Positions 17,330-63,984 of a stretch of DNA of 64,000 nucleotides are shown piece by piece. Location of the stretch: the NCBI GenBank assembly GCA_032249135.1, contig JAVVGL010000006.1, positions 1-64,000 of the forward strand. The letters are read 5' to 3'. A model generated the notes under the pieces. It saw nothing but the letters and a program-made list of their open reading frames with translations. It did no database searches and was not told where the DNA came from. This stretch comes from Candidatus Calescibacterium sp. GTDB lineage: Bacteria > Calescibacteriota > Calescibacteriia > Calescibacteriales > Calescibacteriaceae. The position numbers and the translations under genes are program-made. The number at the start of each line of letters is the position of its first letter. The stretch's first letter is position 1.

Positions 17330-17381
17330 AGTAAAAAGGAAGGAAACAGGAGAGAGTACAAAAAAAGAAAAAAAGAAAAAA

Positions 17382-17410
17382 TTGACATAGGGGATGGTCA
17401 TTGGTATATT
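17382..17410 (+). promoter_or_regulatory. Sigma70-type promoter upstream of rpoC (extended -10, A-tract UP element)
   Basis: TTGACA (17382-87), 17-nt spacer ending TGg, TATATT (17405-10); long A-tracts immediately upstream. Confidence 0.75.
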
Positions 17411-17460
17411 TTTCAAGTTGAGAAATTTAAAGTAAAAATTTAAAAAGGGGGGAAAAAAAT

Positions 17461-22275: not shown

Positions 22276-22276
22276 T

Positions 22277-47144: not shown

Positions 47145-47870
47145 ATGGAAGAGCGGAGTAAACCCGGTACTTTTTTTCGGTTTTTGTTTTTGTCTTTGAT
47201 TTTTTGGCTTCTTTCTTATTCTTTCTCTCTTTCATTTGCTGACGAAAAAAAATCTGTACTGCAAATTCTGGCTTCTGACATATCCTTTGAATTCCAAAGA
47301 AAAAAGGAGGAGTTTCCAAAAATAATTGTTGGAACTACGGTAGCCTTAACCGCTGCCATACCATTATCTCTGGCTGATCAGTATGTAAGAAACCTTGTTT
47401 TATCTTCTTATAATAAAACAAAATATGCAGGAGAAGTTATGAGTTTTTTAGGTGAAGGAATTTTTCTTGTTCCTTTCTCTTTTGCAGGTTATATTTTTGG
47501 TTTGGTTTCAGATAACGAAAAAGTGAGGTTGGGGTTTATGAGAGCTATTTACAATTTGGCTTTTACTACCTTCATAGTTCAATCTCTGAAATTTTCTGGA
47601 AGAGAGAGACCAGCTTGGGCAGAATACCAATATTCTTTTTCTCCTTTGAGATTTGAAGATAGATGGAGGTCATTTCCGTCAGGACACTCCCAAGCGAGCT
47701 CATCAGTCTATTTCACCGTAGCAAAAGATGTCTGTGAAAGCAAATTATGTTCTGCGGTGTTTTATTCTTTACCTTTTATTGTAGGTGCGGGAAGAATTCT
47801 TGTGAATGATCACTGGCTTTCTGATGTTGCTGGTGGTATAATAATAGGATTTTCATTTGAGGTTTTTTGA
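47145..47870 (+). CDS. PAP2 family phosphatase
   Basis: K...R.RP, SFPSGH, R....HW.SDV. Confidence 0.9.
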   Translation: MEERSKPGTFFRFLFLSLIFWLLSYSFSLSFADEKKSVLQILASDISFEFQRKKEEFPKIIVGTTVALTAAIPLSLADQYVRNLVLSSYNKTKYAGEVMSFLGEGIFLVPFSFAGYIFGLVSDNEKVRLGFMRAIYNLAFTTFIVQSLKFSGRERPAWAEYQYSFSPLRFEDRWRSFPSGHSQASSSVYFTVAKDVCESKLCSAVFYSLPFIVGAGRILVNDHWLSDVAGGIIIGFSFEVF

Positions 47871-47933
47871 AGATACCCAGAGTTAATTTTTTTGAATTCT
47901 GGGGTTAGAATTACTGAATTGGTTTGAAAGACC

Positions 47934-49070
47934 ATGGGCGAGTTAGTAGATATATGTGTTGTTGGTGCCGGACCTGCTGGTCTTTCGTTTGCTTTGAGTT
48001 TTCCTGAAAAAAATAAAATTTTGGTTTTAGAAAAAGAATATTTCCCTCGTGATAAAGTTTGCGGTGGAGGACTTATACCAAAAGCAGTAAAATTACTTTC
48101 TGAGCTCGGACTTGTCCCCGGCAAAGATTTTCCTGCAAAGAAAATAAAAAAGATTGTCTTCTCCTCTGATTTGGGTGAGAAAATTTTTGATGTATCTGAT
48201 AAGAATTTTATGGTAACAAAAAGATTAGATATGGATTTTGCACTTTTCAAAAAAGCAAAGCAATGCGGCGTCAAAATTGAAGAAGGAGTGAAATTTTTGG
48301 GATACTCAGAAAAAAACGGAAAAATTTTGGTTTCAACAACAAAAGGTTATGTTGAGTGCAAAAAACTTGTGATAGCTATGGGTTCTTACCTTAAAAGAGA
48401 CTCCTACAAGGCTGTAAGGTGGTTTGAAAATCAGAATGTAGAAGATAAGATGTTGTTCTCTATTGAAAGTTTTGGAGATGAGTTTGTGTGGTTTTGGAAA
48501 TTTGATGGCTACGGTTTTTCTGATATAGGCTTTATGTCCCTCAACAAAGACCTCCAAAAAATAAAAGAAAAGATGAAAAAAAAGGAAGAAAATGAAAATA
48601 ATAATAACAATAATAAAAGCCAAGTTGAGAACAAAAAAGAATTTTTTGTCATAAATAAGTTCAATCCAAAGACAAAATTCAAAAAAGGAAATGTTTTTTT
48701 TATTGGAGATTCATACGGAGTAGATACTTTGACAGGGGAGGGAATTTCATCTGCCCTTCACCATGGAATAATGCTTTCTCGTGTTTTGCAAGGTGGTTCG
48801 GATTTGAATCCTTTTCTCTTTTTATCTTTTCGGTCTCTTTTTTATTTTTATAGCTCTTCTCTTTTCAGAAGGCTTTTGATCTTCTATTTTTTTTCAAACT
48901 TTTTTTATAGAAACGAGAAAACTTTGGATTTAGCGAAAAAAGTTTTGCTTTCTGATGAGTTTTCAAAATTTGTCAGTGGTTTGAAATTTGAAAGTGATGG
49001 AAAAATATCACAGGTACTGGACTTTTTGAAGATTGTAGCCAAAGTTTATTTCAAAAACTTATTGGTTTGA
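47934..49070 (+). CDS. Geranylgeranyl-reductase-family FAD-dependent oxidoreductase
   Basis: VVGAGPAG, LEK..FPRDKVCGGG, R..MD..L, IGD.......GEGI..A. Confidence 0.8.
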   Translation: MGELVDICVVGAGPAGLSFALSFPEKNKILVLEKEYFPRDKVCGGGLIPKAVKLLSELGLVPGKDFPAKKIKKIVFSSDLGEKIFDVSDKNFMVTKRLDMDFALFKKAKQCGVKIEEGVKFLGYSEKNGKILVSTTKGYVECKKLVIAMGSYLKRDSYKAVRWFENQNVEDKMLFSIESFGDEFVWFWKFDGYGFSDIGFMSLNKDLQKIKEKMKKKEENENNNNNNKSQVENKKEFFVINKFNPKTKFKKGNVFFIGDSYGVDTLTGEGISSALHHGIMLSRVLQGGSDLNPFLFLSFRSLFYFYSSSLFRRLLIFYFFSNFFYRNEKTLDLAKKVLLSDEFSKFVSGLKFESDGKISQVLDFLKIVAKVYFKNLLV

Positions 49071-49127
49071 AATTTGATTAAAATAAAATTGAGTGTAGAG
49101 GAGGGTAAAAAATTAAAAAATAAAAGT

Positions 49128-49934
49128 ATGCAGACTTTCAAGGCTTTAATTTACTCTTTCAGATTCCCTCAGTTTTTCTTCTTTATTTCGGTTTTGATGA
49201 TGGGATTTTTTTCAGGAGGAACAAAACAAATATATTCTATCACTATCATATTAAAGCTTACTTTTTGTGCGGTTTCAATTTTTTTTCTTTGGTGGGGGAA
49301 CTCACTTATTAATGATCTTTACGACCTTGAAATAGACAAAATAACAAATAGATCAAGACCTTTGGTGAGAGGACTTGCAAGACCGGAGGATTTCAAAAAA
49401 TTCGGGTTTTTATTCCTTTTTTTATCTCCTATTCCAGCATTATTTGTTGATTTTTGGGTATTTCTTATAAGCCTTTTGTATGTTTTTTTATCGATTCTGT
49501 ATTCACCTTTGAGATGGGGAAAAAGTCCTTTTTCGTCTTTGTTTATAGCGTGTGGTTCATCTTTGGTTTTCTTGCAGGGGAGCTTGATTTCTGGGAAAAT
49601 AGATTTGATATTTTCTCTTTTTCTTTTCTTATCTTTGTCTTTGGCTACTACATCAAAGGACTTAAAAGATTACGAGGGTGAGAAGGGCAAAGTTTTAAAT
49701 GTCTTTACTTTTTTCGGGAGAGAGAAAGGCAAGGTTATAAATTTTTTCTTGAACTTTTTGGGTATTTTTGTTTGGGTATTTTTGGTTCCAAAACTTTTTT
49801 GGTTTTTAGTTTTTAGTTCTTTGATCCTATCTTTATTTTTCTTCTTCACAGAAAAACTAAAAATCCTTATGTTTCTTTATCTTCTTGTTCTATCTTTTGT
49901 GTTCTTTTTTTATGTAAAACCTTATTATTATTGA
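49128..49934 (+). CDS. UbiA family prenyltransferase
   Basis: NSLINDLYDLEID..N..RPL..G (motif I), YS, KDLKDYEG (motif II); polytopic. ATG 49128 preferred over TTG 49074. Confidence 0.88.
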   Translation: MQTFKALIYSFRFPQFFFFISVLMMGFFSGGTKQIYSITIILKLTFCAVSIFFLWWGNSLINDLYDLEIDKITNRSRPLVRGLARPEDFKKFGFLFLFLSPIPALFVDFWVFLISLLYVFLSILYSPLRWGKSPFSSLFIACGSSLVFLQGSLISGKIDLIFSLFLFLSLSLATTSKDLKDYEGEKGKVLNVFTFFGREKGKVINFFLNFLGIFVWVFLVPKLFWFLVFSSLILSLFFFFTEKLKILMFLYLLVLSFVFFFYVKPYYY

Positions 49935-50983
49935 TTTGACAAAAAGAGGGCTTCAAGGCACAGTGCACAAGATAAAGCTTTTACTCCTAAAAGATATTTT
50001 CTTTCTGGATCACCTGCATAAATGTATTCCGGTTCTTTCATTTCTATTACTTTGTTCATGTGCTCAGAAATTTTCTCTATTTCTGTTCTGTCAAGTTTTG
50101 CATTCAGTTTAAGAAGCGATGAAATTATAGCGCACCTTGTTGTTATGTTTAAATCTTTGTCATAAATTAAGGCGTAAGTTAAGGTTTTTTCAATCTTATC
50201 TTTAATCTCATTTTTATTCTGGCATTTTATATACGGAAGCGCCCTCACTATGTTGTAAAGCGCAAGATAATCTGAAAGGTAATATGTTCTGTACCATATA
50301 TCTTTGAAATTTTGTGGGTTTGAAACAAAGTTATGAATGAATTTACATATTCTCTCAACTCTTTCGTTGTATATATCGTATACTGAAAAAGCCCATAAAA
50401 CATTTGCTGCAATCCCCAAATCCCCAGATTCCGTAAATGGACTCCCACCAGCAATCCAGATTTTTACCGTGCCATCTTCTCTTATGAATTGAGTTAGGCT
50501 TTCTACAAACTCCTTTGGTATATTTTTGAAATTTGTAATTTTGAATATAGCTAAAACTACGGAGGTAGTATCTATATCTGGAATCTCCATAGCTTTGATT
50601 TCTTCTGGTCCGATCAAGCTTTCATATCCCCACAGATACTCTCCTTTTTTGTTTTTATTTTTCCAGACAGATGAAAAAATCTTTTCTGCGAGGTTTTTAC
50701 TTTTTTGTTTTAGTTTTTTGTCTTTTGTTATCTTGGAAAATTGCCATAGTATATAACCTACTTGGACAGAATCAAAAATACTTTTTCCAGTGGAAGTTTT
50801 TCCCTCTATTCTTCTGAACATAGTGTAGTCAAAGAGTGCGGTTTGGTCCAATTTTTTTTCAAAAAAATCAAGTGTTTTTTCGTATTCAGATTTTTGAGGA
50901 CAAACTGAAAACACCAAAGAAAAAAAAGAAAAAGGAAAAAAGAAAAAAAGCAATAACGCCAATAATAATCGTTTAGATTTCAT
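49928..50983 (-). CDS. Exported helical protein, possible alpha/alpha-barrel (terpene cyclase/prenyltransferase-like fold)
   Basis: Signal peptide; WGY...PDIDTTS, REDG..K.W, D...AANVL, YY. Confidence 0.5.
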   Translation of the reverse strand: MKSKRLLLALLLFFFFPFSFFSLVFSVCPQKSEYEKTLDFFEKKLDQTALFDYTMFRRIEGKTSTGKSIFDSVQVGYILWQFSKITKDKKLKQKSKNLAEKIFSSVWKNKNKKGEYLWGYESLIGPEEIKAMEIPDIDTTSVVLAIFKITNFKNIPKEFVESLTQFIREDGTVKIWIAGGSPFTESGDLGIAANVLWAFSVYDIYNERVERICKFIHNFVSNPQNFKDIWYRTYYLSDYLALYNIVRALPYIKCQNKNEIKDKIEKTLTYALIYDKDLNITTRCAIISSLLKLNAKLDRTEIEKISEHMNKVIEMKEPEYIYAGDPERKYLLGVKALSCALCLEALFLSNQ

Positions 50984-51085
50984 TTTGCAACTTATATTTT
51001 AATTTTGTAATGTAAAGAGAATTTTTTATTTCCGTTTATTTTTTAAATTTTTTGTAGCTATATTTTTTATAGCAGGTGAGAAAAT

Positions 51086-51718
51086 ATGCGGAAATCGTTA
51101 TCAGAAGAAGCTACTGAGGTTTTAGAAAGTAAGCTCGGTAAGGCGGAGGCGAAAGCTTTTGTGAGAGCTGTTGATGAAGTAATATCACAAATTACTGAAA
51201 TCAAATGGAAAACAACAAAAGATGAGCTCCTTAGTGCAATAAGAGAAGAATTCATAAATAAAAATGTCTTTGAAGAAAGAACATTAGCAATACAGCAAAG
51301 TATTAACTCATCAAAGTTAGAGCTTAATGCAAGGATAGACGGGGTTAATGCAAAGGTAGACGGAGTCAAAATGGAGCTTAATGCAAGGATAGAAGGGGTA
51401 AGAGCAGAGCTTACTGAAAAGATAGACGGAGTTAAGATGGAGCTTAATGCAAGGATAGATGGGGTTAATGTAAAGGTAGATAGTATCAAGGCAGAGCTTG
51501 ATGCGAAGATAGAAGGAGTCAGAGCAGAGCTTACTGAAAAGATAGAAGGAGTTAAGACGGAGCTCAGTGCAAAAATAGATAAAGTAAAGTCAGACCTTGA
51601 AAGACAAATACAAAAAACTGATATGAAGCTTAATTTCCTTATTGTATTGACTATTATTGCCATTACTCTTATGAACCCAGTTGTAGCTGAAATCATAAAA
51701 TCACTTCTCAAATTTTGA
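51086..51718 (+). CDS. DUF1640/CCDC90-like membrane-anchored coiled-coil repeat protein
   Basis: Head domain, TTKDEL neck, 11- and 18-aa repeats, C-terminal TM (FLIVLTIIAITLMNP). Confidence 0.75.
   Translation: MRKSLSEEATEVLESKLGKAEAKAFVRAVDEVISQITEIKWKTTKDELLSAIREEFINKNVFEERTLAIQQSINSSKLELNARIDGVNAKVDGVKMELNARIEGVRAELTEKIDGVKMELNARIDGVNVKVDSIKAELDAKIEGVRAELTEKIEGVKTELSAKIDKVKSDLERQIQKTDMKLNFLIVLTIIAITLMNPVVAEIIKSLLKF
51320..51586 (+). repeat. Coding tandem repeat: 120-bp unit (54+33+33 bp) x2 plus partial
   Basis: Units begin gagctt at 51320, 51374, 51407, 51440, 51494, 51527 and gagctc at 51560. Confidence 0.9.
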
Positions 51719-51775
51719 TGACATAATTTTTTCAAATAATTAGAAGGTTCTGAAAACTTGCTCTAAATTAAAAAT

Positions 51776-52600
51776 ATGTCTTGCTCTGTGTTCTTTATTT
51801 TTGCTCTTTTTCTTGTCTCTCAGCAAACAAGTATATATGATGGGATTTTACTTGAAGTTGAAAGACTTGTTGGCTACCTTGAAACCATCCAAAGACAAGA
51901 TGGAAGGTTCTCAAATTCAAACTCAGATTTTGAGGATGTCCTTGTTTTATTTTCTCTTTATGATGCCGAAAGAGTAGCTCACCCCAAAAATAAAATTCAT
52001 GAACATTTTTCAAAAATAATAAGAAAGGCAGATGAAAATGGTGTTTTTTCTTATCTTTCAAATTCCAGGGACCCAAAGGCACGCTTTAAATGGTATAGAT
52101 TTTTGGTCTATACAAATTCTTTGAAGCAACCAGACCTTAAAGCGGAGATAGAGAAGATAGACTGGCAGAAGCAAAACGATGTGGAATTTTTTGCTGTGGT
52201 TCATGAAACCGCCTCAATGGCGGGTCTCAAATATGATTTTTTATGCCAAAAAATTGAAAGTTTCCTTGAAAAATTCATACAAAATCCAAAAATTCAAGAC
52301 CTTGAAAAAGTGTATTTTATTTTTCAGTCGCTCAATTACTCAAACTGTGAAAAGTTTAGCAAACATTCTCCATTTGTTTTTGAGGTTTTGAAAGGGGTGG
52401 AGAAACTTAAAGATCAGCTCAAAAAAAATCCTTCTTTCGTATGTATGTACTTTGATGTTTTATCTAATTTTTCTCGCTCTCGTTCTTTTAACTTTGAAGA
52501 ATTTGAGCTTTTGTTTGATGCTTTGAAAAAAGTGAGGAGACCAAAAGAAGTTGCAATATGTATAAGCTCTGCTGTGAAAGTTCTTTTGAGAAGGATGTAA
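51776..52600 (+). CDS. Exported helical hypothetical protein with QW-like repeat
   Basis: Short signal peptide; YL..IQRQDGRF and ADENGVF resemble prenyltransferase/squalene-cyclase repeats. Confidence 0.5.
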   Translation: MSCSVFFIFALFLVSQQTSIYDGILLEVERLVGYLETIQRQDGRFSNSNSDFEDVLVLFSLYDAERVAHPKNKIHEHFSKIIRKADENGVFSYLSNSRDPKARFKWYRFLVYTNSLKQPDLKAEIEKIDWQKQNDVEFFAVVHETASMAGLKYDFLCQKIESFLEKFIQNPKIQDLEKVYFIFQSLNYSNCEKFSKHSPFVFEVLKGVEKLKDQLKKNPSFVCMYFDVLSNFSRSRSFNFEEFELLFDALKKVRRPKEVAICISSAVKVLLRRM

Positions 52601-52669
52601 TAAAATCTTGTTTTTTCTTCCCAAAATGATTATTATATATAAAAATTGCTAAATTTTTTTGTAAAAGGT

Positions 52670-55600: not shown

Positions 55601-58600
55601 GATTGTGGCGCATATGGTGGTTGCAACGCCACAGACGACAGCAACTGTAGGAGAATTTGCAGGTGTTGTATTCAGGGTTGTCAGGATCAGGCGAGGGCTG
55701 GGCAACCGAATGAATGGGAAGCTTATAAGCGGCAGGTTCAAAACACAAACACATTTCAGGTCGTCTTGTGGCAAGATGGAACAATTGATATAAATGTAAA
55801 GGAATTTACAGATACCGCCGGAAGCTGTAATGGAACAACGCCACGCGCTCGTATGTTTTTGAAACAAAATTCATCAAGATATATTGAGTTAAGCATAGCA
55901 CCGAATAAGTCTTATAGAATCTTCCCCCTGGGTTATGCAAACACAGTTTGTGGTACCGGGCGAGTAATATATGGTTCTGGAACTTGCACAAGAACAACCG
56001 GTTCAGGAACTGCAAACTGTGTCAGAGTCAGATGGGAAAATGTCCATGTGAAAGGGCAAGGCATATGCATAACTATGGAGGCAAGAATTATGCAAGATTA
56101 CACGGGGACGGGAGCGGGAGCAGGTTCAAACTACGATATTGTGTTTTTCATGGAAAGATTTGAGGTTCCGATAGCTTCACTATCTCCGGAGCAAAGGAAA
56201 CAGCTGGCAAGACTATCAGACTTTACAAGGAGCCCCGGTGTGGAAAACGCTGCCGGTGATGTGGGAGCTTATGCTTATATACCTCCTGATGGGAATGGTT
56301 TGGTTATGAGGTGGCAAGGTCCGTGGACATACTGGATTGGTGTGGGTATATCACAAGATTTGATGACTGACGCATCAAACATGCTATACTCTGGGGTGAT
56401 GTGTCTTTCTGCAAATGTGGGCGGAGTTAATACTGCAGATACCCAAAAATACTACGATATTTTTACTACAATTTTACCGTTTAACTTATCATCAGCCGAT
56501 TCTGCAAAAACACTATTTCCATTTATCACGAATTATTGCGATCCGGATGGTCAGGTTGAGTTGAGGATGAAACCATCTGGTGTGACGCAAGCGAGCGCAA
56601 GAACAGGCTTGCAAATCCCATCTGTTTTAATTGCAGGCTCTACCCTTGATACATTCCCTTATGAGGGAGCGCTCGGAATTTCTGTTCCACAAACATGCAC
56701 CGAGTGGGGGTTTTCACGATGTGCAGATGTCGTCTTCTCTTTCCCGAATTTCAAAGCGGAAATTTGGTGCCACAAAAACAACCTCCCAACCTTTGCGTGG
56801 ATAAAAGACGGTATAACAGGTCCTCCAACCTATGTTTTGGGAATAACATCAGATTGGTTTATCGGAGCCGATATAGAATACGCTTACATATCAACGGGAA
56901 TTTCTATGCAGGCAAAATTGCAGGATGCGTCAGGAGGAAATGAATATGTCTATGTGAAAATAGCCGATGTCTCCTGTGCAATAGCTTCGGGAGATATACT
57001 TGAATATTGGATAAGGGTTGACCCAGCTACAAGACGCTGCGCCCTTGATGCATATTTCTCGGGGGGAGGCGTTCTGAGAAATGTACCAGGACTTACCGAC
57101 CAGAACGGAATACCTGCTCACCCTGATGGTAATTTGCAGACTTTCTGTCCTGACCCTAACTGCACAAAGACTGCACCAAACACAAGTTGTAGGTGCCCCG
57201 TACAAGATTGGTATAGGAGAAGAATATCGCTTTCTAGTTTTGCTGGGCAAACTTTGCAGGAGCTTGCAATAGGTGTTGAGGAAGATGCAAACGGTGGATA
57301 TTCTTGCCAAATAATGGGTATTAAGGTTTTAAATAGTTCCGGTGGAGTAAAATGCTCTTTTTCTGGTCTAAGAGATATGGGAATATGGGCTCGAGGAGGG
57401 ATAAGCAGCATGCAACGATATTCTTACTCTGTTGCTGGGAACACCATAGGAGATATATTTATTTTTGCAGATGTGAAACCGAACCCAAGACAGATTCAAT
57501 CTTCTGTTTTGCTACCAAGTCAAATTATAGGAGGAATCGCAGACATTTTCGGAGATATTCTCTCTGGTTGGTTGCAAGGCAGAATAAGAACAAAATTCAA
57601 TATACCTTTGGAAATAAACATGCCTTTGCATTTTGTTTTCAAAAAAGTCAAACCACAAGGACCTGATATTCAAACAGATGAGACTAACTTTAACCCATGG
57701 CTAAGTTATGGTTATCCTCCCGGAAATATAGCTCCTGATTACTTGGTTATTTACATAGATAGATTTTTGGGGAATATAGATGTTGTATCTTTGATGATGG
57801 GTGGTCTTTCTTTGGCTCCACCCGCACCTTATCGTAGGTCTCAAGTTTCAACATCTGAACTTATATCTTTTGATATTCCAGAGTGTTCCGGGAAAGGTGA
57901 AAAATGCGTTCTGACTCCTGATGTTGCTAAAAAATATTTCACAAATTTTGGTCCAAATAATGTGAATTTGAGATTTGGAGGAGGTGTTATAAAATACTCG
58001 TGGAGGAAAAATGGGAGTATGTGGAAGCTTCCAAATTCTGCCGCACAAAGCACACTTGATATAGGTACCTTGCTTGAAGGACCAAACATAATAGAGATAG
58101 CTCCAATATTAGATGATGGGTACTTTTACGATGAAAATCCAGTTATTTTGGCTATATATATGGATACCCAACCACCTTATGTTAGTTTGAGAGGAGGGAG
58201 GGAGCTTGAAACAGGTATTATGTATTTTTCCGGTGTTCCAGTGTTTGTTTTAGAATACTATGATATGAGCGGTGAGGTTTTCTGGTCTTATAAGATAGAT
58301 GATGGTGAGTGGTCAGAATGGATAAAAGGAGGAGTTGATAATAACGGTAGCGGAACAGGTAGAATAAAAGCAGATGTGAGCAAAGGCACACATGTTCTTT
58401 ACCTGAAATTGAAAGATAAATGGGGTAATGAAACATCAATTTCTAAACCATTTTATTTCGCAAAGGAGGGAGTTTTTGGATGCTCATCGCTGAGCGAAGT
58501 TGAAGTCCAAGAGATTGTATGGAAGGGAATTTCTTTTGCTATTTTCTTCTTCCCAGTTTTAGTCGTAGTTCTTATGGTAAAAAGGAACGGTAAAAAAACG

Positions 58601-58618
58601 GTAAAAAGAAAGAAATGA
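52670..58618 (+). CDS. Giant Cys-rich surface protein with nidogen(NIDO)-like, CBM-like and Ig-like modules and a C-terminal Cys sorting signal
   Basis: Signal peptide after ATG 52670 (ORF track starts at TTG 52646); two F.F.F.G..Y...CIS.NG...F motifs; YSWRKNG/SYKIDDGEWSEW Ig-like modules; FGCS-TM-KR..KK. Confidence 0.85.
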   Translation: MTEQKKLGAILLNIFIVLSLPLIIKGEEIKRGDTDNQYETKGENTYDQYDEQRIMRELELLPILSLERTRRETGRAGRMYIGFADEVFRGRIIPKVVPKTATLAIDGIGCGISTGNIIGPSSTWGQSFQARWGYEVLNVGCPNDDAGWCDDKDWPAPSACVDANRDYICDCGWGGCVGGCDDINAPDCGYRERLGDMTGEFEGLLQYVAERLKEALVQRDLRILVNKSLCGKGSCVDTPWPLDHLCLTVNQDPTDNANIRERCWAPSKPLDPWVVYYNKTFVEVFPNPGKGTIDVILLLWAEGGVPGDPQGIPVSNRSNGNTNPSSDVCVELRLCGDSSGGGAFYADAIAIKASLYLVVQDNLVDVCVKDTELDIINSHVYLEGCVAGCFCDANPESPPLGNQSLSDEGLEETLGASIAPGIDNFLHGNCPGDRALSLCPKVAFRGWGYRGPCAPSIGCSFDATTGEMSCTCQVCPENNSYGPCPPGSVQCTHGIFPIDLNELLGGRSFSVTQYCGRPQHFAGENAAHLDPLKCWPGHYKAGDPTPPPPFNNPLTWYGTMSCGKGIYDIGCYMSKPPILTGTGCSAQIDAAIRPRDLSQSCSEMSFDGYPASPTFSGTSGFVVRAAFDADNYTPEPLLFPQSVPAAGTNCNIQGDGVDDDNGYCSVSIPFTFNFYFGSYTSMCISTNGFVRFGAAGADCGDATPDPIPYTNTPNAWAGPMWADLSIENEYLYYVSEVVPATWIDAYSCRIMGAMDVGASAGDPLDDTLVGNVNSACAGSNICGVSSLCNDEHSEPSYTTYNDCSYNQSIGWSFPFFGSNFSNVCISSNGIIYFRNDGICPAGALNIPTSPAAGGPNYSIAVVWKDLDPLTMTSDEDCSGCASCSFLCTGHDRHRGEFNGFGSVYKHYISGTCPTSGGSCSALVITWYRVVDFNVQPNNADNCSDNNDSNADCTNYAAGRDWCEVREGSNLYDCGCNPDCGAYGGCNATDDSNCRRICRCCIQGCQDQARAGQPNEWEAYKRQVQNTNTFQVVLWQDGTIDINVKEFTDTAGSCNGTTPRARMFLKQNSSRYIELSIAPNKSYRIFPLGYANTVCGTGRVIYGSGTCTRTTGSGTANCVRVRWENVHVKGQGICITMEARIMQDYTGTGAGAGSNYDIVFFMERFEVPIASLSPEQRKQLARLSDFTRSPGVENAAGDVGAYAYIPPDGNGLVMRWQGPWTYWIGVGISQDLMTDASNMLYSGVMCLSANVGGVNTADTQKYYDIFTTILPFNLSSADSAKTLFPFITNYCDPDGQVELRMKPSGVTQASARTGLQIPSVLIAGSTLDTFPYEGALGISVPQTCTEWGFSRCADVVFSFPNFKAEIWCHKNNLPTFAWIKDGITGPPTYVLGITSDWFIGADIEYAYISTGISMQAKLQDASGGNEYVYVKIADVSCAIASGDILEYWIRVDPATRRCALDAYFSGGGVLRNVPGLTDQNGIPAHPDGNLQTFCPDPNCTKTAPNTSCRCPVQDWYRRRISLSSFAGQTLQELAIGVEEDANGGYSCQIMGIKVLNSSGGVKCSFSGLRDMGIWARGGISSMQRYSYSVAGNTIGDIFIFADVKPNPRQIQSSVLLPSQIIGGIADIFGDILSGWLQGRIRTKFNIPLEINMPLHFVFKKVKPQGPDIQTDETNFNPWLSYGYPPGNIAPDYLVIYIDRFLGNIDVVSLMMGGLSLAPPAPYRRSQVSTSELISFDIPECSGKGEKCVLTPDVAKKYFTNFGPNNVNLRFGGGVIKYSWRKNGSMWKLPNSAAQSTLDIGTLLEGPNIIEIAPILDDGYFYDENPVILAIYMDTQPPYVSLRGGRELETGIMYFSGVPVFVLEYYDMSGEVFWSYKIDDGEWSEWIKGGVDNNGSGTGRIKADVSKGTHVLYLKLKDKWGNETSISKPFYFAKEGVFGCSSLSEVEVQEIVWKGISFAIFFFPVLVVVLMVKRNGKKTVKRKK

Positions 58619-58673
58619 TAGAAGGAAAAGGAGAGCCAAAAGAAGAAGATTAATAGATAAATAAAATAGATAA

Positions 58674-59960
58674 ATGATTTTCGGTTTAGTCTTTACCGCA
58701 AGTCTTATAAGGGGAATATTAGAAATACTACTTCTGACAAAAATAAGAGATATTCGGGAAATTTTTCCTTTTTTGTCTTTTTGGATTATTTGGTATTTTG
58801 TAGTCTTTTATACTGCATCAGCTATCATAAGCTTTTTTGCAAAAGAAAAGCTTGAAGATGTCATGAAGTTCATTTCAAAGTTTTTCTTTTTGATTATTTT
58901 GCCACCTATTGTAGATAGATTTTTGTTTGGAAGAACACAGCCTTATTTTTATGAAAAACCAGAAGATATTCTGAAACATTTTTTCTCTTTTTTCCTCACA
59001 ACAGAAAGAGTAGGTAAGGCTTTGGTTTTGAATGTTCTTTTCATTCATTTTTTTGTCTTTTTGTACACTTTTTTTGTTGTCTTCAAAAAAGAGAGGGTTT
59101 TCTCAAATTTTTCAAGGGCGTTCCTCAAAGCGTTCGCAAGAGCTCTTTTATGTTTCATCTCACTTTATACTGCTTCAAGTTTTTACGCGGTAGGAGGGTT
59201 TTTACCCGTAATTTTCCCTCTTGTTCCTATACTACCCTCGGTAGCTATACCATTTTATAATTCTGTTCATGGTTTTTTCTTTTCTGTTTTACTTTTTTTT
59301 CTGTTTTTTATAACACAAGCTGAAAAGTTGAAATTAGCCAAAACAAATCTAAAAAACTTTCTTTCTTTTCTTCATAGTTTTGGGTTTAATGCAAAATATA
59401 TCATACCTTTTTTGAGCGGATACATATTTTCTGGTTTTGGGATTTGGTATTTACCTACATTTTTTTATGTAGGTATTTCTGTTTTGTTTTTTGATGGCTT
59501 CAAAAGGGGCTCACAAATTTTTTTCCCTATTTTAGCAATAGCTTTATTTTCGCCTTACATCCTTGTTTCTTTCCTTATTTTAGTTTTGCTTCGCTACATC
59601 AGAGAGTTTTTTATTAAGGAGTTGGAGAGTGAGGATTTGGGGGAGCGTTTTTGGAACTTGAGCTTGGTTGTTTCGTTTTTCATGGGTTATGCGGCAGGAA
59701 AAATATATATTTTCTTCATTATAGATTTATTCCTTACTTTGTTTTTTTTATGTTTAGCTTTATTTTTGAATAATTTATATCTTTCTTTTTTGGGTTTTGT
59801 TCCGTTTTTGATTTTAGGAAAACCAGAATTTATTTTCCTATCTTTTGTTGGATATATAGTTTGTGTTTTATCTCAAAGGTACTGGAAATATGCAGTTTTG
59901 GCTAGTGTAGCTTTGATTTACTTTGTTCTGAAAAATTTAGAGTTTTGGTTTGGATTGTAA
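58674..59960 (+). CDS. Polytopic membrane protein, C-terminal half possibly a degenerate UbiA-like fold
   Basis: 12 or more hydrophobic segments; IILPPIVD motif; no Asp-rich motifs. Confidence 0.6.
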   Translation: MIFGLVFTASLIRGILEILLLTKIRDIREIFPFLSFWIIWYFVVFYTASAIISFFAKEKLEDVMKFISKFFFLIILPPIVDRFLFGRTQPYFYEKPEDILKHFFSFFLTTERVGKALVLNVLFIHFFVFLYTFFVVFKKERVFSNFSRAFLKAFARALLCFISLYTASSFYAVGGFLPVIFPLVPILPSVAIPFYNSVHGFFFSVLLFFLFFITQAEKLKLAKTNLKNFLSFLHSFGFNAKYIIPFLSGYIFSGFGIWYLPTFFYVGISVLFFDGFKRGSQIFFPILAIALFSPYILVSFLILVLLRYIREFFIKELESEDLGERFWNLSLVVSFFMGYAAGKIYIFFIIDLFLTLFFLCLALFLNNLYLSFLGFVPFLILGKPEFIFLSFVGYIVCVLSQRYWKYAVLASVALIYFVLKNLEFWFGL

Positions 59961-59975
59961 AAAAAATAAGGAATT

Positions 59976-62426
59976 TCACCTATTTCCTACAAGAAAAGAG
60001 GTTATGGAATCTGATAAGTTTATATTTCTTTTTTTTAGAGCCTTTTGAATTATGGCTAAAACATCGCTCAAATCTTGTAGATCTGGATTTTTCCATCCAC
60101 ATACCGCTTGAATTTCGTTCTGAATTTCTTCGCTTTGAGCAAAATTTAATGCCCAACACTTTTCTATAATAAAAGAGCCAGAAAAAGATGGGTCTTTGAA
60201 CTTCGCATAAATTGCCCCCGCTATTCCATCTTTTTTCAGCACATCAAAATGCTCAGTATCTTCGTCGTCTTTTTCAAAATCTATTTGAAATACTGGAACT
60301 ATTCCTTGCTCAGTAAATTGTAAAGCTGTTTCTGGTAGGTAATCACGCAGTGGCTTTGTTATAAACTTTGATAAACTTATTTTTATGAATGTTATAGGGA
60401 GTTGGAATTGCGGTAAAGGAAAGAAATTTATGAGTTCTGATACCTCAACAAATTCTGATTCTACTTTATCAAAAAAATCAAGCGTTTTCACAAGGTCAAA
60501 TGGAACTTGAGCGAAATAAATTTTTTTGTTCTCTGTGTTCTTGCATATTACATTTTCAGAGGGACAAATTGGAGCATTATCATATGCTTTCCCAAGTTCT
60601 ATTTTTGCTCTTTCAAGATTCTCTTTGAACGAATTTACAAGTTCGTTCACATCTACACCTTCTTTGAAATAAAGAGATTTATCAGAAAATGTTGAAGGTA
60701 TAATTTTTATTGTCTCAGGACTCACTTGACCTTGAACGATTTTTTTCAATCTTTCTTTGAAATCAAGATTATGACTTAGGATATATTTTGTTATTCCGTA
60801 AATGAGCCTTGTGATTGCAGATATAAAATTTGCTTCTGCATATCCAAAGTATCCAGATGTAATGAAAAAATCAATTTTCTCTGGAGTTGTCCATCGCGCA
60901 TTCTGAACCCTCTCGTAAATATCAGAAAGTTTTGAATGCAAATACTCTACTATATCAAGTCCAAAGCTCGGTATCTGTCCCCCAATTACGCTTTTTACAT
61001 CAATTATTATACCTATGATGTTAGATTCAGGTTGACGCCCAAACCTTCTTTCAAACTCATCAAGATACTTTATGCTTATTTTCAAATCCTTCTTTAATGA
61101 TTTCAGCATGTAAGATATTATGCAATCTTTTTCATCCTCTTCACACAAAAATATTTTGAGATTGAGGTTTTCTCCATAAGGTACGATCAAATCAAAGAAA
61201 GGGAAAAAGCCGTCTTTTTCTACCGTCAAAGTTATCCCATAAGGATACATTTTGACAACAACTATAAATTCTCCGGAGCTATCTGTTATTTTCTCTTCGC
61301 TTCCTTCACCAATAATTACTTTTGCCCCCGGGATTGGATTACCTTTTGAATCAAAAACTTTACCGGTTATGAGAATTCCCGATGAAAGAACAATTTGAAC
61401 TTGCGAGCTTTCCTCAGTCGGAGTTATAGAAACCTGCTCTGGGAAAAATCCCTGCTTCATCGCATATAAAACTCGTGGTTTTTGAGCGGGCAAATTCATA
61501 TACGCTATACCGTCGCTCCAAGATGACATCGCAAGAAAATCATCTCCAGCATAAATTATTACTCCTCCTTGACCATCTTCTGAAATTGCCTTTACCAGAA
61601 GTGTAATTTGAGGGAAAGACAAACCAGAAAATGGGTCTGTTCCTTTTTTGATTTCAAAATCGTTATCATATCCATCTCCATCTGCGTCAAAATCTTTTTC
61701 ATTTGGAATTGAATCAGAATCTAAATCTTTTGGATTGAAAGGAATATCATATTTGAACTCATGTGTTATGGAGCAGGGGAAGTTAAATATGAACCAGTTT
61801 TGAGTTATAAACCTGAAACTTGCTCGCTGATTCTTACTCCACGAAAATAAGTCCGGAGGACATATTATGGGAGCGAATTTTTCAGGGTTCTGAATAGGTG
61901 GTTCATCAAGAACAGTATCTCCGGTTATTACAACATCTACCGAGTTTATTATAATTCCTGCATCTTGCAATTCGGAAAAGATTATTTTGTGTTTGCCATA
62001 AGGTGCGTAGAGTGTATATTTTCCATCTTCTTTTACGGGTGCAAAAAATGGTAAGAATGCAACTCCAACGAGTTTGGGAAATCCCCGGAAATATGCTCCT
62101 CCCCATATTTTTGCTGCACCTGTTATATTTATGTTAAAATGTGTATCTTTTGTGATTTCAATTTCATCTGAGAACGCAAGATTGTCTTTTTTTGCGTAAA
62201 TGAGGTATTTGCCTTTTTTTAAGCTGAATTTGAAATTCCCATTTATATCGGTCTTTTGCGGTGGTGCTCCAACTATTCCTACTTCTGCTTGAATTACCGG
62301 TTCATCTCCATACAGAACTTTGCCTTCAAGTATAAAATACTCCTTTTTCCCGCAAAAAGAAAGAAAGTTTAAGGCAATAAGACAAAAGGATATTACTATT
62401 AGTTTCTTTTTGTTTCCAAATTTCAC
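59976..62426 (-). CDS. Lipoprotein with carboxypeptidase-regulatory-like beta-sandwich domains and a thrombospondin type-3-like Ca-binding repeat
   Basis: Lipobox-like LSFC; G.V...EPV..AEV, ITGKVFDS.GNPIPGAKV...TDS.GEF; DLDSDSIPNEKDFDADGDGYDN..E...GTDP. Confidence 0.8.
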   Translation of the reverse strand: MKFGNKKKLIVISFCLIALNFLSFCGKKEYFILEGKVLYGDEPVIQAEVGIVGAPPQKTDINGNFKFSLKKGKYLIYAKKDNLAFSDEIEITKDTHFNINITGAAKIWGGAYFRGFPKLVGVAFLPFFAPVKEDGKYTLYAPYGKHKIIFSELQDAGIIINSVDVVITGDTVLDEPPIQNPEKFAPIICPPDLFSWSKNQRASFRFITQNWFIFNFPCSITHEFKYDIPFNPKDLDSDSIPNEKDFDADGDGYDNDFEIKKGTDPFSGLSFPQITLLVKAISEDGQGGVIIYAGDDFLAMSSWSDGIAYMNLPAQKPRVLYAMKQGFFPEQVSITPTEESSQVQIVLSSGILITGKVFDSKGNPIPGAKVIIGEGSEEKITDSSGEFIVVVKMYPYGITLTVEKDGFFPFFDLIVPYGENLNLKIFLCEEDEKDCIISYMLKSLKKDLKISIKYLDEFERRFGRQPESNIIGIIIDVKSVIGGQIPSFGLDIVEYLHSKLSDIYERVQNARWTTPEKIDFFITSGYFGYAEANFISAITRLIYGITKYILSHNLDFKERLKKIVQGQVSPETIKIIPSTFSDKSLYFKEGVDVNELVNSFKENLERAKIELGKAYDNAPICPSENVICKNTENKKIYFAQVPFDLVKTLDFFDKVESEFVEVSELINFFPLPQFQLPITFIKISLSKFITKPLRDYLPETALQFTEQGIVPVFQIDFEKDDEDTEHFDVLKKDGIAGAIYAKFKDPSFSGSFIIEKCWALNFAQSEEIQNEIQAVCGWKNPDLQDLSDVLAIIQKALKKRNINLSDSITSFLVGNR

Positions 62427-62546
62427 TTATGTAAAAATTTTAGTTCTAAAATTTATTTTTGTTATTACTTTTTTTCTTTTTATATTTTTGATTAAGCCGA
62501 GATTTATTTTTTTATTTTTTTGTTTGTTTTTTGTTTGTTTTTTGTT

Positions 62547-63227
62547 ATGAATTTTGTTTTATATGAGTCAGCGATTTGTGTTTTGATTTCAGCTTTCGGT
62601 CTTGCTTCAACAAGGTTCAAGTTTTTGGAGCTCAAACACTATGTTTTTATTGTTTTTATATCTGCTCTTTTGGTTCTTACAAGATACTTTTTCTCAAAAC
62701 AAGAGAGCAGAATAAGGCTTTTGTCTCTTCCATCATCTCTTTTGCTGATTTTTCTTTCTTTGCCATCTCCGAAGCTTTTTTTAATTTCATTTGTTGCGCT
62801 TTACATTTTTTCAATTGAGATATTTTCTCCTTTTGAGTTTGGAAAAAAAATTCCTTTCTTGATAAAACCTGTTATTTTTGTAGTTTTTTATTTTTTGGGG
62901 TTTTACTATGTTGCAAATCCATTTTCTTTTGCAACTTATGATGCTCTTTATTATGCTCTTTTGATTGCAATTTTCGGCTTATTTTTTTCACTATCACAAA
63001 AACATTTTGCTTTCGGATTCCCGGCAGTTTTGACTTTTCCCATCTTCCACTCATCTTTACCTGTTATAGCACTATCTGGACTTACTCTTTTATCTTTATT
63101 TTTTATGAGAAAAGAGAAAAAGAACTTTTTGCCCTCTGTTTTATCTTTGTTTTTTCTCGTCTTTTTTATCTTGTACCTTTATGATGCACAAAGTATGCTC
63201 CCAGCAGGAGCTATATATATTTTTTAA
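62547..63227 (+). CDS. Polytopic membrane protein, possible degenerate UbiA paralogue
   Basis: About 8 TM segments; FLIS...SI..SP...GK..PF segment resembles the UbiA at 49128. ATG 62547 preferred over TTG 62520. Confidence 0.55.
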   Translation: MNFVLYESAICVLISAFGLASTRFKFLELKHYVFIVFISALLVLTRYFFSKQESRIRLLSLPSSLLLIFLSLPSPKLFLISFVALYIFSIEIFSPFEFGKKIPFLIKPVIFVVFYFLGFYYVANPFSFATYDALYYALLIAIFGLFFSLSQKHFAFGFPAVLTFPIFHSSLPVIALSGLTLLSLFFMRKEKKNFLPSVLSLFFLVFFILYLYDAQSMLPAGAIYIF

Positions 63228-63273
63228 TTGATATATATTTTTTGATTGATTTGATTTTTTTGCTAACTAATAT

Positions 63274-63984
63274 ATGTTGCCGCTTATACATTTGGGGTAT
63301 GGAATATACATTCCTATATATCCTATTGCAACTGCTATTTCAATATCTTTGGTAGCTTACCTTATTTTAAGGGAGGATGATAGATTTGCAGTTGAACTTG
63401 GGTTCTTTATTGTGTCTTTTATTTTATCTTCAAGAATTTTTTTGGGAAAGAAAATTCTGAATTTTTGGGAGAGCGGATATTCTCTCATGACGGGGGTAAG
63501 TATATCTTTCCCCCTCACACTTATTTTTCTTCTTATAAGAAAAAAAGATTTTTTATATTTTTTTGACCTGTGCTCAAAATATGCTCCGGTGGGACTTGCC
63601 ACACACAGAATATTCGGATGTTTCCTTGCAGGATGCTGTTGGGGAGTTCCAAGCTCTTTTGGTCTTGTGCCTCATCCTTGGTCACTTGCATTCAAATATA
63701 CTGGATACCAAAAACTTTTCCCAGTCCAGATTTTTGAAGGTTTGTGGTGGGTGATTTCTTTTTTCCTTGTGAATAAATCAAAAGACAAAACATTAACTTT
63801 TCTCCTTTGCCTTTTTATATCAAGACTATTTGAATATCTGAGGGGAGATATTGACCTTTTTTTCTACATAGGTAGAATAAAAGTTTCATTTTATCAGATT
63901 TTGGCAGCTTTTTTACTCTTATCTACCGCAGCAGTAAAATTTTTATTGAGTAAGAGAAAAGAAAAAAATAAAGGGAAAAATTAA
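63274..63984 (+). CDS. lgt: Prolipoprotein diacylglyceryl transferase (Lgt) family protein, divergent
   Basis: M.P.I, SRI, D.....P.GL...RI.GCFLAGCC.G.P, P.QI.E, R..EYLRGD, YQIL. Confidence 0.75.
   Translation: MLPLIHLGYGIYIPIYPIATAISISLVAYLILREDDRFAVELGFFIVSFILSSRIFLGKKILNFWESGYSLMTGVSISFPLTLIFLLIRKKDFLYFFDLCSKYAPVGLATHRIFGCFLAGCCWGVPSSFGLVPHPWSLAFKYTGYQKLFPVQIFEGLWWVISFFLVNKSKDKTLTFLLCLFISRLFEYLRGDIDLFFYIGRIKVSFYQILAAFLLLSTAAVKFLLSKRKEKNKGKN

Follow-up and report, generated by a model that had tools for sequence, protein, structure and literature searches.

A putative MYXO-CTERM-type sorting system and an accessory prenyltransferase island around the gene of a giant exported protein in Candidatus Calescibacterium sp.

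Exported proteins of the MYXO-CTERM class, described from Myxococcota and Bradymonadales, end in a Cys motif, a transmembrane (TM) helix and a terminal cluster of basic residues, and are sorted by the myxosortases MrtX, MrtC and MrtP. According to two reports (10.1101/2023.06.07.544157; PMC11980579), the proposal for this class comprises lipidation of the Cys, cleavage by the myxosortase and surface display that depends on the type II secretion system (T2SS). The same reports place the Myxococcus myxosortase gene away from its cargo and relate myxosortases to Rce1, a CaaX protease that works on a Cys carrying a prenyl group. PMC11980579 puts Lgt forward as the leading candidate for modifying the tag Cys and leaves the enzyme unidentified. 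Here, we describe a window of 64,000 nucleotides from Candidatus Calescibacterium sp. (the first 64 kb of a 104-kb contig; genome of 2.10 Mb in 51 contigs, estimated 87% complete), in which the gene of a 1990-aa Cys-rich exported protein (hereafter the giant) stands among genes of isoprenoid type and near divergent paralogues of Lgt. With a probability of roughly 0.55, we read this stretch as a composite of MYXO-CTERM-type cargo, an accessory prenyltransferase island and flanking genes, namely PAP2 with gspD and a tandem pair of Lgt paralogues. The sorting system is of a known kind, in a new lineage and in a divergent form.

The giant, which matches no Pfam or NCBIfam family, ends in ...EGVFGCSS, a 14-aa linker, a TM helix and KRNGKKTVKRKK. 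A preliminary description of the locus had pointed to this FGCS-TM-basic end, and a scan of all open reading frames (ORFs) shows that it recurs: 12 of the 106 C-terminal TM-plus-basic tails of the genome carry [GKS]C[SYFP] before the helix, compared with 1.35 expected from random 24-residue windows, and a 13th tagged protein, a small paralogue, was found under a looser rule. The tagged set includes the M6 peptidase encoded in the window, four more proteins of 757–877 aa, and giants of 1365 and 2066 aa. Seven species genomes of the family, the source genome and six others (G001–G006, 82–86% complete), are the only kin in our sample closer than the same domain, and tagged proteins occur among them as well; a 2161-aa homologue of the giant in G006 ends in VMGC-linker-TM-basic and a small protein of G001 in KFGCSS-TM-basic.

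As in Myxococcota, the tails of this genome combine the Cys motif, the TM helix and the terminal basic cluster, and the invariant Cys is sometimes doubled (GCSC, CGC). They differ in being rich in K instead of R, in their usual motif (G-C-S-S), and in that one family of giants ends right after the Cys without a helix. When 11 tails were scanned against NCBIfam, one passed TIGR03382 (MYXO-CTERM 'GC_trans_RRR'; 17.6 vs 15.85) and was also the best scorer on TIGR03901.2 (16.0, cut-off 20), one further tail matched weakly, and the other nine gave no match to the MYXO-CTERM models. Short tag models of this sort are lineage-specific, as stated by the model's author (10.1101/2023.06.07.544157). Combined, these comparisons support the tail as a real Cys-containing sorting signal, apparently of the MYXO-CTERM class.

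The genome contains a single Rce1-like/CPBP (PF02517) gene, on contig C19. The four best NCBIfam models for its product are all myxosortases (MrtP 105.2, Mrt_core 93.0, MrtC 85.5, MrtX 74.8), and its sequence carries PEEFFFRG and HTFSN, which correspond to the EExxxR and HxxxN motifs named for MrtX in PMC11980579. Orthologues are found in all six other family genomes (88–99 bits). Among 41 genomes sampled, the Mrt_core cut-off is exceeded in four unrelated ones, one of which, G007 (118.9), is used for comparison below. By motifs and profile scores, the protease is thereby shown as a predicted member of the myxosortase family. Since the tail recurs genome-wide and the sole CPBP protease scores best as a myxosortase, we conclude that this deep-branching lineage most probably has a divergent MYXO-CTERM-type sorting system. 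It resembles the described systems in that the genome has about a dozen tagged proteins, encodes its one CPBP protease apart from the substrates and possesses a T2SS.

If the Myxococcus model holds here, Sec export would leave the giant held by its C-terminal helix, the tag Cys would receive its lipid at the outer side of the inner membrane, a myxosortase would cut after the Cys, and the T2SS (GspD here, GspE upstream) would bring the protein, now anchored by the lipid, to the cell surface. That a lipid is attached to the Cys, and with what chemistry, is thus assumed by analogy. The best candidates for the lipidating enzyme would be the tandem Lgt paralogues, LgtP1 and LgtP2, which lie between the giant and a second, 1343-aa giant. 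The tag Cys is on the outer side of the membrane, in a topology inverted relative to a lipobox, and UbiA-family enzymes are usually described with active sites on the cytoplasmic side; as lipidating enzymes, the Lgt paralogues are more plausible than UbiA.

The genome encodes one canonical Lgt (contig C5; PF01790, 163.2 bits) and these two divergent copies; the preliminary description had recognised LgtP1 as a divergent Lgt, correctly by its PF01790 match, and LgtP2 adds a tandem partner just outside the window. Both are short (236 and 251 aa) and score below the TIGR00544 cut-off (30.1 and 42.5 vs 118.9). Aligned with E. coli Lgt (PDB 5AZB), a paralogue keeps the HPxQxYE stretch and the positions of R143, G154 and R239, while Ile, Cys and Cys stand in place of H103, N146 and E151. 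A word-index search for close homologues of LgtP2 gave three matches. Each of the six relatives likewise has a canonical Lgt and one paralogue. In four relatives, an exported domain of ~280 aa is fused to the paralogue, and in the remaining two the paralogue forms a gene of its own; neither the fused exported domain of the G003 Lgt nor the neighbours of the G005 paralogue have a detectable homologue in the source genome.

In contrast to the lone housekeeping gene of E. coli, these second Lgt copies adjoin genes of C-terminally Cys-tagged proteins. A distance of 2.6 kb separates the paralogue operon of G005 from a 58%-identical orthologue of the second giant. In the unrelated, myxosortase-positive G007 (L156:9504-12370, minus strand), two PA14 proteins that end in GGGC...TM...KFKRR and MFGC...TM...KRGEA are followed on the same strand, after a gap of 4 nt, by a divergent Lgt (93.6 bits), and the genome has six Lgt-family genes in all, including an Lgt-x-x-Lgt cluster on L155. 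The paralogues of the family and of G007 look like independent expansions, since a quick tree does not unite them. As circumstantial evidence, these gene arrangements fit the published guess of an Lgt-like enzyme.

The second giant ends in ..GIFSCSQ and its G005 orthologue (L044:7996-11937) in ..GIFGCGGM, both without a helix or basic tail; no room is left for a TM helix before the next gene, and this is the only exported protein of the genome that ends directly after the Cys motif. A Cys followed by two or three residues (CSQ, CGGM) resembles a CaaX end, and the genome's sorting protease shares the CPBP family with the Rce1 enzymes of eukaryotes and archaea (MmRce1). Differences from CaaX processing are that the proteins are exported, not cytosolic, that no protein prenyltransferase alpha/beta pair was identified, and that the toroid proteins of the island (see below) are without Pfam prenyltransferase repeats. 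This CaaX-like end on an exported protein is an odd variant, beside Lgt paralogues and in a genome whose sorting protease is a relative of Rce1.

The second part of the composite is the island. The preliminary description had noted PAP2, a reductase of the geranylgeranyl-reductase superfamily (GGR) and UbiA as co-oriented genes behind gspD, and family matches bear this out, with GGR below the TIGR02032 cut-off (Table 1). Whether these genes belong together was assessed in four metagenome contigs with close UbiA relatives (L058–L061). L058 and L059 (~92% aa identity) share the order gspD-PAP2-GGR-UbiA-orf351-cc210-orf274-giant. In L060 (68 kb, ~92%), GGR-UbiA-orf351-cc210-orf274, one inserted gene and the giant lie behind EF-Tu, NusG, a response regulator and an S58 peptidase, and in L061 (~72%) GGR-UbiA-orf274-giant lies behind GlnD and a ParB-like gene; in both, the module occurs without gspD or PAP2. 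Orf274 is present in all four contigs, and the giant has orthologues at 76–90% in each. GGR-UbiA-(orf351)-orf274-giant thus keeps its order in three genomic contexts despite the free rearrangement of the lineage.

The gspD gene, by comparison, has orthologues in all six other family genomes (68–90% aa identity), and PAP2 follows it only in the three of the same genus (G001–G003), there without GGR or UbiA behind it. The best solved relative of PAP2 is the lipid A phosphatase LpxE (6EBU, E 9e-6). From these gene orders, GGR, UbiA, orf274 and the giant stay together while PAP2 and gspD are outside the unit; gspD-PAP2 is a genus-level pair and a bystander to the module. The expected linkage in relatives therefore stood for GGR, UbiA, the toroid protein and the giant, and failed for PAP2 and gspD, which are conserved without the rest. 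In G001–G006, GGR, UbiA, orf274, poly428, lipo816 and poly235 were not found beyond weak or fragmentary matches, such as a 34%-identical UbiA (weak match) in G006 and, in G004, a weak match to lipo816 over a short stretch (E 3.7e-4); because those genomes are 82–86% complete, this is to be read as 'not found' and not as 'absent'. For this reason, positions 47934-63227 are regarded as an accessory island, and in this species ~15 kb of enzyme genes plus the giant are shown to form it. Its isoprenoid genes are a mobile, co-inherited module of an uncharacterised family.

A purely accidental neighbourhood, in which functionally unrelated genes were brought together by rearrangement and only the tag is meaningful, seems improbable. 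The genome does look shuffled, as had been suspected: in the window, rpoB and rpoC are followed directly by the GspE-type ATPase (12611-23758), the ribosomal protein genes L7/L12 and L16 stand isolated among unrelated genes in that region, and gene order is poorly conserved even within the genus. The gspD-PAP2 pair, the island and the Lgt genes also differ in phyletic pattern. On the other hand, the block was retained in three contexts despite this shuffling, gene fusions described below link the poly428 domain, UbiA and the toroid, and G007 has its apparent Lgt/Cys-tail operon independently.

Table 1. Features of the window and of the adjoining part of the contig (scores in bits; "vs" gives the model cut-off)
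Feature	Position	Strand	Basis and remarks
GspE-type secretion ATPase	22250..23758	+	PF00437 355.1; T2SS background, outside the island
M6 (InhA-like) peptidase, second Cys-tagged substrate in the window	26892..28910	-	PF05547 84.2; tail ..GEFGCSCSS-TM-KRREKRKN
T2SS secretin GspD	45204..47138	+	TIGR02517 473.7 vs 351
PAP2 lipid-phosphate phosphatase, LpxE/PgpB-like	47145..47870	+	PF01569 60.6 vs 27.2; starts 7 nt after gspD
GGR, divergent flavoprotein of the geranylgeranyl-reductase superfamily; first island gene	47934..49070	+	TIGR02032 93.6 vs 158.8
UbiA-superfamily prenyltransferase, stand-alone	49074..49934	+	PF01040 73.3 vs 34.2; starts 3 nt after the GGR gene
orf351, exported all-helical protein, probable lipoprotein	49928..50983	-	signal peptide and Cys; convergent with UbiA
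cc210, coiled-coil repeat protein with C-terminal TM segment	51086..51718	+	not constant in the module
orf274, exported alpha/alpha-toroid protein (predicted)	51776..52600	+	AF2 model, Foldseek, ESM Atlas; constant module member
Giant, Cys-rich exported protein, 1990 aa	52646..58618	+	ORF and N-terminal signal sequence
Putative tripartite C-terminal sorting signal of the giant	58469..58618	+	GVFGCSS, linker, TM helix, K/R cluster
poly428, polytopic, 428 aa	58674..59960	+	N-terminal domain homologous to the domain fused before UbiA in relatives
lipo816, probable lipoprotein, 816 aa	59976..62426	-	PF13620 (CarboxypepD_reg) 43.8; weak TSP3_bac repeat, E 0.0026
poly235, polytopic, 235 aa	62520..63227	+	no family assignment in Pfam or NCBIfam; immediately upstream of LgtP1 and LgtP2
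LgtP1, divergent Lgt paralogue	63274..63984	+	PF01790 54.8 vs 24.9
LgtP2, tandem partner of LgtP1	contig 64002-64757		PF01790 80.2 vs 24.9; just past the window
Second giant, 1343-aa paralogue of the giant	contig C6:65612-69643		1.6 kb past the window end

The window UbiA exceeds the PF01040 cut-off and has both Asp-rich motifs of the superfamily; across 62 aligned sequences, N80, D84 and D88 never vary, and D196, D199 and D203 hardly do. When 1.84 billion representative proteins were scanned exhaustively with HMMER, one relative appeared at E<=1e-30 and 146 at E<=1e-10, and a word-index search gave six close homologues. Most of the best 150 relatives are ~470–550 aa long with the UbiA domain in the C-terminal half. 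All 62 aligned members match only PF01040, none better than E 1e-32 on a named NCBIfam equivalog, and no quinone or heme equivalog (UbiA, MenA, CtaB) matches the window protein at E<=0.01, in agreement with the expectation that it would fall outside the ordinary quinone/heme clades. Three other UbiA genes of the genome are presumably, by their motifs, of the MenA, heme O synthase and decaprenyl-phosphate phosphoribosyltransferase (DPPR-synthase) types. The window protein is accordingly a predicted stand-alone member of an uncharacterised prenyltransferase clade, on which a limited literature search surfaced nothing specific for bacteria of the candidate phyla radiation (CPR) and for archaea of the DPANN group, and which we do not claim to be unpublished.

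Its closest solved relative raises the question of archaeal-type membrane lipids. The only PDB match at E<=1 is the Methanocaldococcus digeranylgeranylglyceryl phosphate (DGGGP) synthase (6M31, E 1.7e-13), and the best NCBIfam matches are archaeal prenyltransferase and DGGGP synthase models. As in the archaeal pair of DGGGP synthase and geranylgeranyl reductase, a UbiA fold with both Asp-rich motifs is here preceded, 3 nt upstream, by a GGR-superfamily flavoprotein. This flavoprotein aligns over positions 2–290 of the 297 of TIGR02032, yet below the cut-off, and its PDB matches cover the FAD-binding N-terminus only. Archaeal-type ether lipid synthesis has reportedly been proposed for some bacteria of the FCB group, and the two loci in which a GGR stands near a UbiA relative are both archaeal. 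Nevertheless, we consider it very unlikely that the pair makes such ether lipids independently of the giant. The DGGGP synthase equivalog scores are far under their cut-offs (49.6 vs 296 and 44.4 vs 353). The geranylgeranylglyceryl phosphate synthase partner, for which a search had been suggested, was not found, as no PcrB/GGGPS family match reaches the cut-off in this 87%-complete genome and the best PF01884 scores (22.6 vs 23.9) fall on ordinary frames of 253–254 aa. Moreover, the genes are accessory within the family, not core, and the nearest UbiA relatives come from CPR, DPANN and Thermoplasmatota genomes and carry an additional N-terminal polytopic domain, sometimes also a toroid domain, rather than being of the ~280-aa DGGGP synthase type.

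This N-terminal domain (N-domain), with the conserved motifs R..E, LPPxxD and GRxxxY, connects UbiA with poly428. Near relatives of the window UbiA are mostly N-domain+UbiA fusions of ~490–550 aa. The window UbiA is without the N-domain, which is found instead in the N-terminal 130 residues of poly428 (hhalign 98.6%, E 7.3e-16; BLASTP to the fusion protein P0016, E 6e-9). In a 13-sequence alignment, R13, E17, P78, D81, Y91 and Y131 of poly428 are invariant, and the protein is gapped at both Asp-rich motifs, which its C-terminal half does not contain. The preliminary description had considered both poly428 and poly235 to resemble UbiA. Neither matches PF01040, and poly235 shows no similarity to the UbiA-family profile (hhalign probability 0.5%) or to poly428, with only three close homologues among 5.8 billion proteins; what remains of that claim is that poly428 begins with the domain fused before UbiA, which is not the UbiA fold. 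A search of the ESM Atlas with poly428 gave nothing usable (best score 0.76, no model). The predicted complex of UbiA with residues 1–215 of poly428 scored 0.08 against a mark of 0.32 and was used neither way.

Two of the fusion proteins, P0049 (831 aa) and P0022 (769 aa), continue after N-domain+UbiA with a toroid-like C-terminal domain, which gives a sub-threshold match to SQHop_cyclase_C (25.0 vs 26.1) and carries DLDDIS or, in P0022, DLDDTA. Nearly the full length of orf351 aligns with this domain by BLASTP (residues 539–820 of P0049, E 0.002; P0022, E 0.02), placing its DIDTTS at the acidic motif; orf274 has DFEDV at a comparable place. In L078, a locus in a metagenome-assembled genome (MAG) of Methanosarcinales, a homologue of the toroid-like domain is encoded by the next gene after a fused UbiA (E 4e-57). 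Because orf351, orf274 and this archaeal homologue all begin with a signal or anchor sequence, the toroid parts are expected outside the cytoplasmic membrane, and would act there. The AlphaFold2 (AF2) model of orf274 is good (predicted local distance difference test (pLDDT) 85.2, predicted TM-score (pTM) 0.82). In Foldseek, it reaches query TM-scores (TMq) of 0.49–0.61 to class II terpene cyclases, GH76/GH105 glycosidases and ribophorin II, with no match at E<=0.001, and in the ESM Atlas TM-scores of 0.72–0.75 to squalene-hopene cyclase domains. For orf351, the model from a 6-row alignment is poor (pLDDT 54.6), and its weak toroid matches, with all Foldseek rows above E 0.01, are a weak lead only. 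The two proteins align with each other at E 0.007 over 92 aa, and neither has a Pfam prenyltransferase or cyclase family (PF00432, PF13243, PF13249). Of the two exported helical proteins with cyclase- or prenyltransferase-like motifs announced earlier, orf274 is thus confidently modelled as an alpha/alpha toroid, and orf351 is probably one.

These folds bring up another possibility, namely that UbiA, a class II cyclase-like toroid and the reductase form a small terpenoid or meroterpenoid pathway, with the giant hitch-hiking on the same mobile stretch. The toroid models match monodomain class II cyclases and drimenyl-diphosphate synthases (6SBC, 7XQ4, 9M7F), squalene-hopene cyclases and the monodomain cyclase MstE; a UbiA enzyme is reportedly paired with MstE in merosterol synthesis. 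DLDDTA of P0022 and DIDTTS of orf351 fall at an aligned place, and polyprenyl synthase genes adjoin fused UbiAs in two loci (L077 and L140). However, orf274 resembles the monodomain cyclases, like the ribophorin II toroid, only at TMq 0.5–0.6 and without a significant Foldseek E-value, and glycosidases and ribophorin II score equally. Neither window protein has a complete DxDD motif or a Pfam cyclase match, and the signal or anchor sequences of orf351, orf274 and the L078 homologue place them outside the cytoplasm. We therefore regard such a pathway as unlikely. Since fusion proteins elsewhere unite the parts, the island is better understood as a split version of an N-domain+UbiA(+toroid) system. 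By homology, GGR, UbiA, orf351, orf274, poly428 and probably lipo816 are shown as components of a predicted membrane prenyltransferase system, split and uncharacterised, which would most likely make a polyprenyl-derived, possibly reduced, membrane lipid.

Distant UbiA relatives were collected with a one-genome-per-species scan (319 found, best 80 loci kept); these represent Thermoplasmatota, CPR/Patescibacteria, MAGs under the label Bdellovibrionales, DPANN, Aminicenantes, Ignavibacteria and further groups, and 26 of their 79 UbiA ORFs are of the fused type. Around 24 fused-type genes, an exported ~350-aa protein with TSP3_bac repeats recurs in eight loci, a family of 235–673 aa without assignment in ten, a ~650-aa family in four and a polyprenyl synthase in two. 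The weak TSP3 repeat of lipo816 gives the island a protein with the same type of repeat. Loci between L075 and L110 (CPR and 'Bdellovibrionales' MAGs) share a conserved cluster of the TSP3_bac protein and two families without assignment beside the fused UbiA; the families of this cluster have no detectable homologue in the source genome, and none of the 80 loci gave a phmmer match to orf351, orf274, PAP2, LgtP2 or the giant. In a Thermoplasmatota MAG (L074:3-13190), two giant secreted proteins, paralogues of each other, stand on either side of the fused UbiA, and in a Woesearchaeota MAG (L083:3900-14336) a 3478-aa ORF holds the N-domain+UbiA membrane core between two long extracellular parts. 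The N-domain+UbiA family is widespread in CPR bacteria and in archaea of the DPANN and Thermoplasmatota groups; in some cases, giant extracellular proteins are fused to it or flank it. On these neighbour counts, the broader UbiA family is linked to exported proteins and not specifically to Cys tags.

The preliminary description had proposed that the locus makes a saturated isoprenoid lipid and/or attaches a lipid to the C-terminal Cys of T2SS-exported surface proteins. Its core observations hold, in that the Cys tag appears to be a real sorting signal and GGR, UbiA, the toroid gene and the giant are linked, in three contexts as shown above; the isoprenoid on the Cys is not supported. For such a prenyl- or archaeol-type anchor speak, besides this linkage, the giants around the fused UbiA of L074 and within the ORF of L083. 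In addition, lipidation by an as yet unnamed enzyme has been proposed for the tag class, and myxosortases are related to Rce1, whose substrates carry a prenylated Cys (10.1101/2023.06.07.544157; PMC11980579). Against it, the other 11–12 tagged proteins of the genome have no such neighbours, six relatives keep tags and protease without the island, and only 3 of 19 fused-type loci show an association with giant proteins. The Cys also lies outside the membrane, and the known reactions of UbiA enzymes are C- and O-prenylation, at a site that faces the cytoplasm. We consider this anchor quite unlikely, and the link between the island enzymes and the tag is suggestive.

A bolder version of the composite reading joins two proposals: that divergent Lgt paralogues lipidate the invariant Cys of MYXO-CTERM-type tags, and that the N-domain+UbiA(+extracytoplasmic toroid) family serves very large surface proteins as an unrecognised machinery, supplying or attaching their isoprenoid anchor. 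Taken together, we hold these to be rather doubtful. Their interest is that the enzyme modifying the Cys of MYXO-CTERM-type tags is an acknowledged gap, and that the gene arrangements of the source genome and G007 make the Lgt idea testable with defined partners, namely tag, protease, canonical Lgt and paralogous Lgt. Myxosortase-type sorting would be extended to a deep-branching uncultured lineage, including variant cargo with a CaaX-like end. Moreover, an uncharacterised prenyltransferase family is defined by its fusions, with a polytopic N-domain, UbiA and an optional toroid; it is often met in CPR and DPANN organisms, which have small genomes and poorly understood envelope lipids.

Several observations weigh against the composite reading. 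Regarding the sorting system, the protease stays below the Mrt_core cut-off of 100 in two scans (93.0 and 95.5), none of the 11 tails reaches that of TIGR03901.2, and the protease gene is not near the cargo but on another contig. In PMC11980579, MrtX processed its substrate in E. coli, a host with only the ordinary Lgt; a dedicated Lgt paralogue is therefore not required in principle. Two attempts to delimit the Lgt paralogues as a group failed as well: C-F-x-x-G-C-C was rejected as a clade marker, since the sole Lgt of many unrelated genomes has R-I-G-C-F-L-N-G-C-C, and a common 'LgtP' clade of the family and G007 paralogues was unsupported in the quick tree (SH-aLRT 54, long branches). Regarding the island, the module linkage is shown only among close relatives (72–93% aa identity) and could be explained by common descent, and the G006 homologue of the giant occurs without the module. 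Around the distant UbiA relatives, neighbours differ. Of the 80 loci, only two have a GGR-like gene near UbiA, and these are archaeal and encode short UbiAs. A general association of fused UbiA with giant proteins was also rejected as weak, with an ORF of at least 1000 aa in 4 of 19 fused-type loci (one being RpoB) vs 1 of 31 unfused ones, and only one neighbour, in L085, possibly has a Cys-TM-Arg tail. Lastly, the E-values of orf351 against the fusion domains are weak and its model is poor.

Some smaller observations concern the relatives. Short fragments of GGR (59% identity; C50:219-476) and poly428 (C52:757-906), each with an in-frame TGA, occur in G001, the closest sequenced congener, for which a contamination of 5% is listed; either the decay of a former island or faulty assembly may account for them. 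In G006, the distant giant homologue adjoins gspD and is convergent with it. Upstream of this homologue (L050/L051, contig C49, ~17.8–20 kb), three tandem genes of ~355 aa have C-terminal CxxCPxYY(R) ends and may encode radical-SAM/SPASM-type maturases.

The coiled-coil protein cc210 has repeats of the ELNARIDGV type. Its length is 166, 210, 221 or 261 aa among close strains (166–261 aa in L058–L060), and it is absent from L061. A 60%-identical paralogue is encoded on contig C39, and an antisense ORF of 222 aa (51067-51735) is the shadow of cc210.

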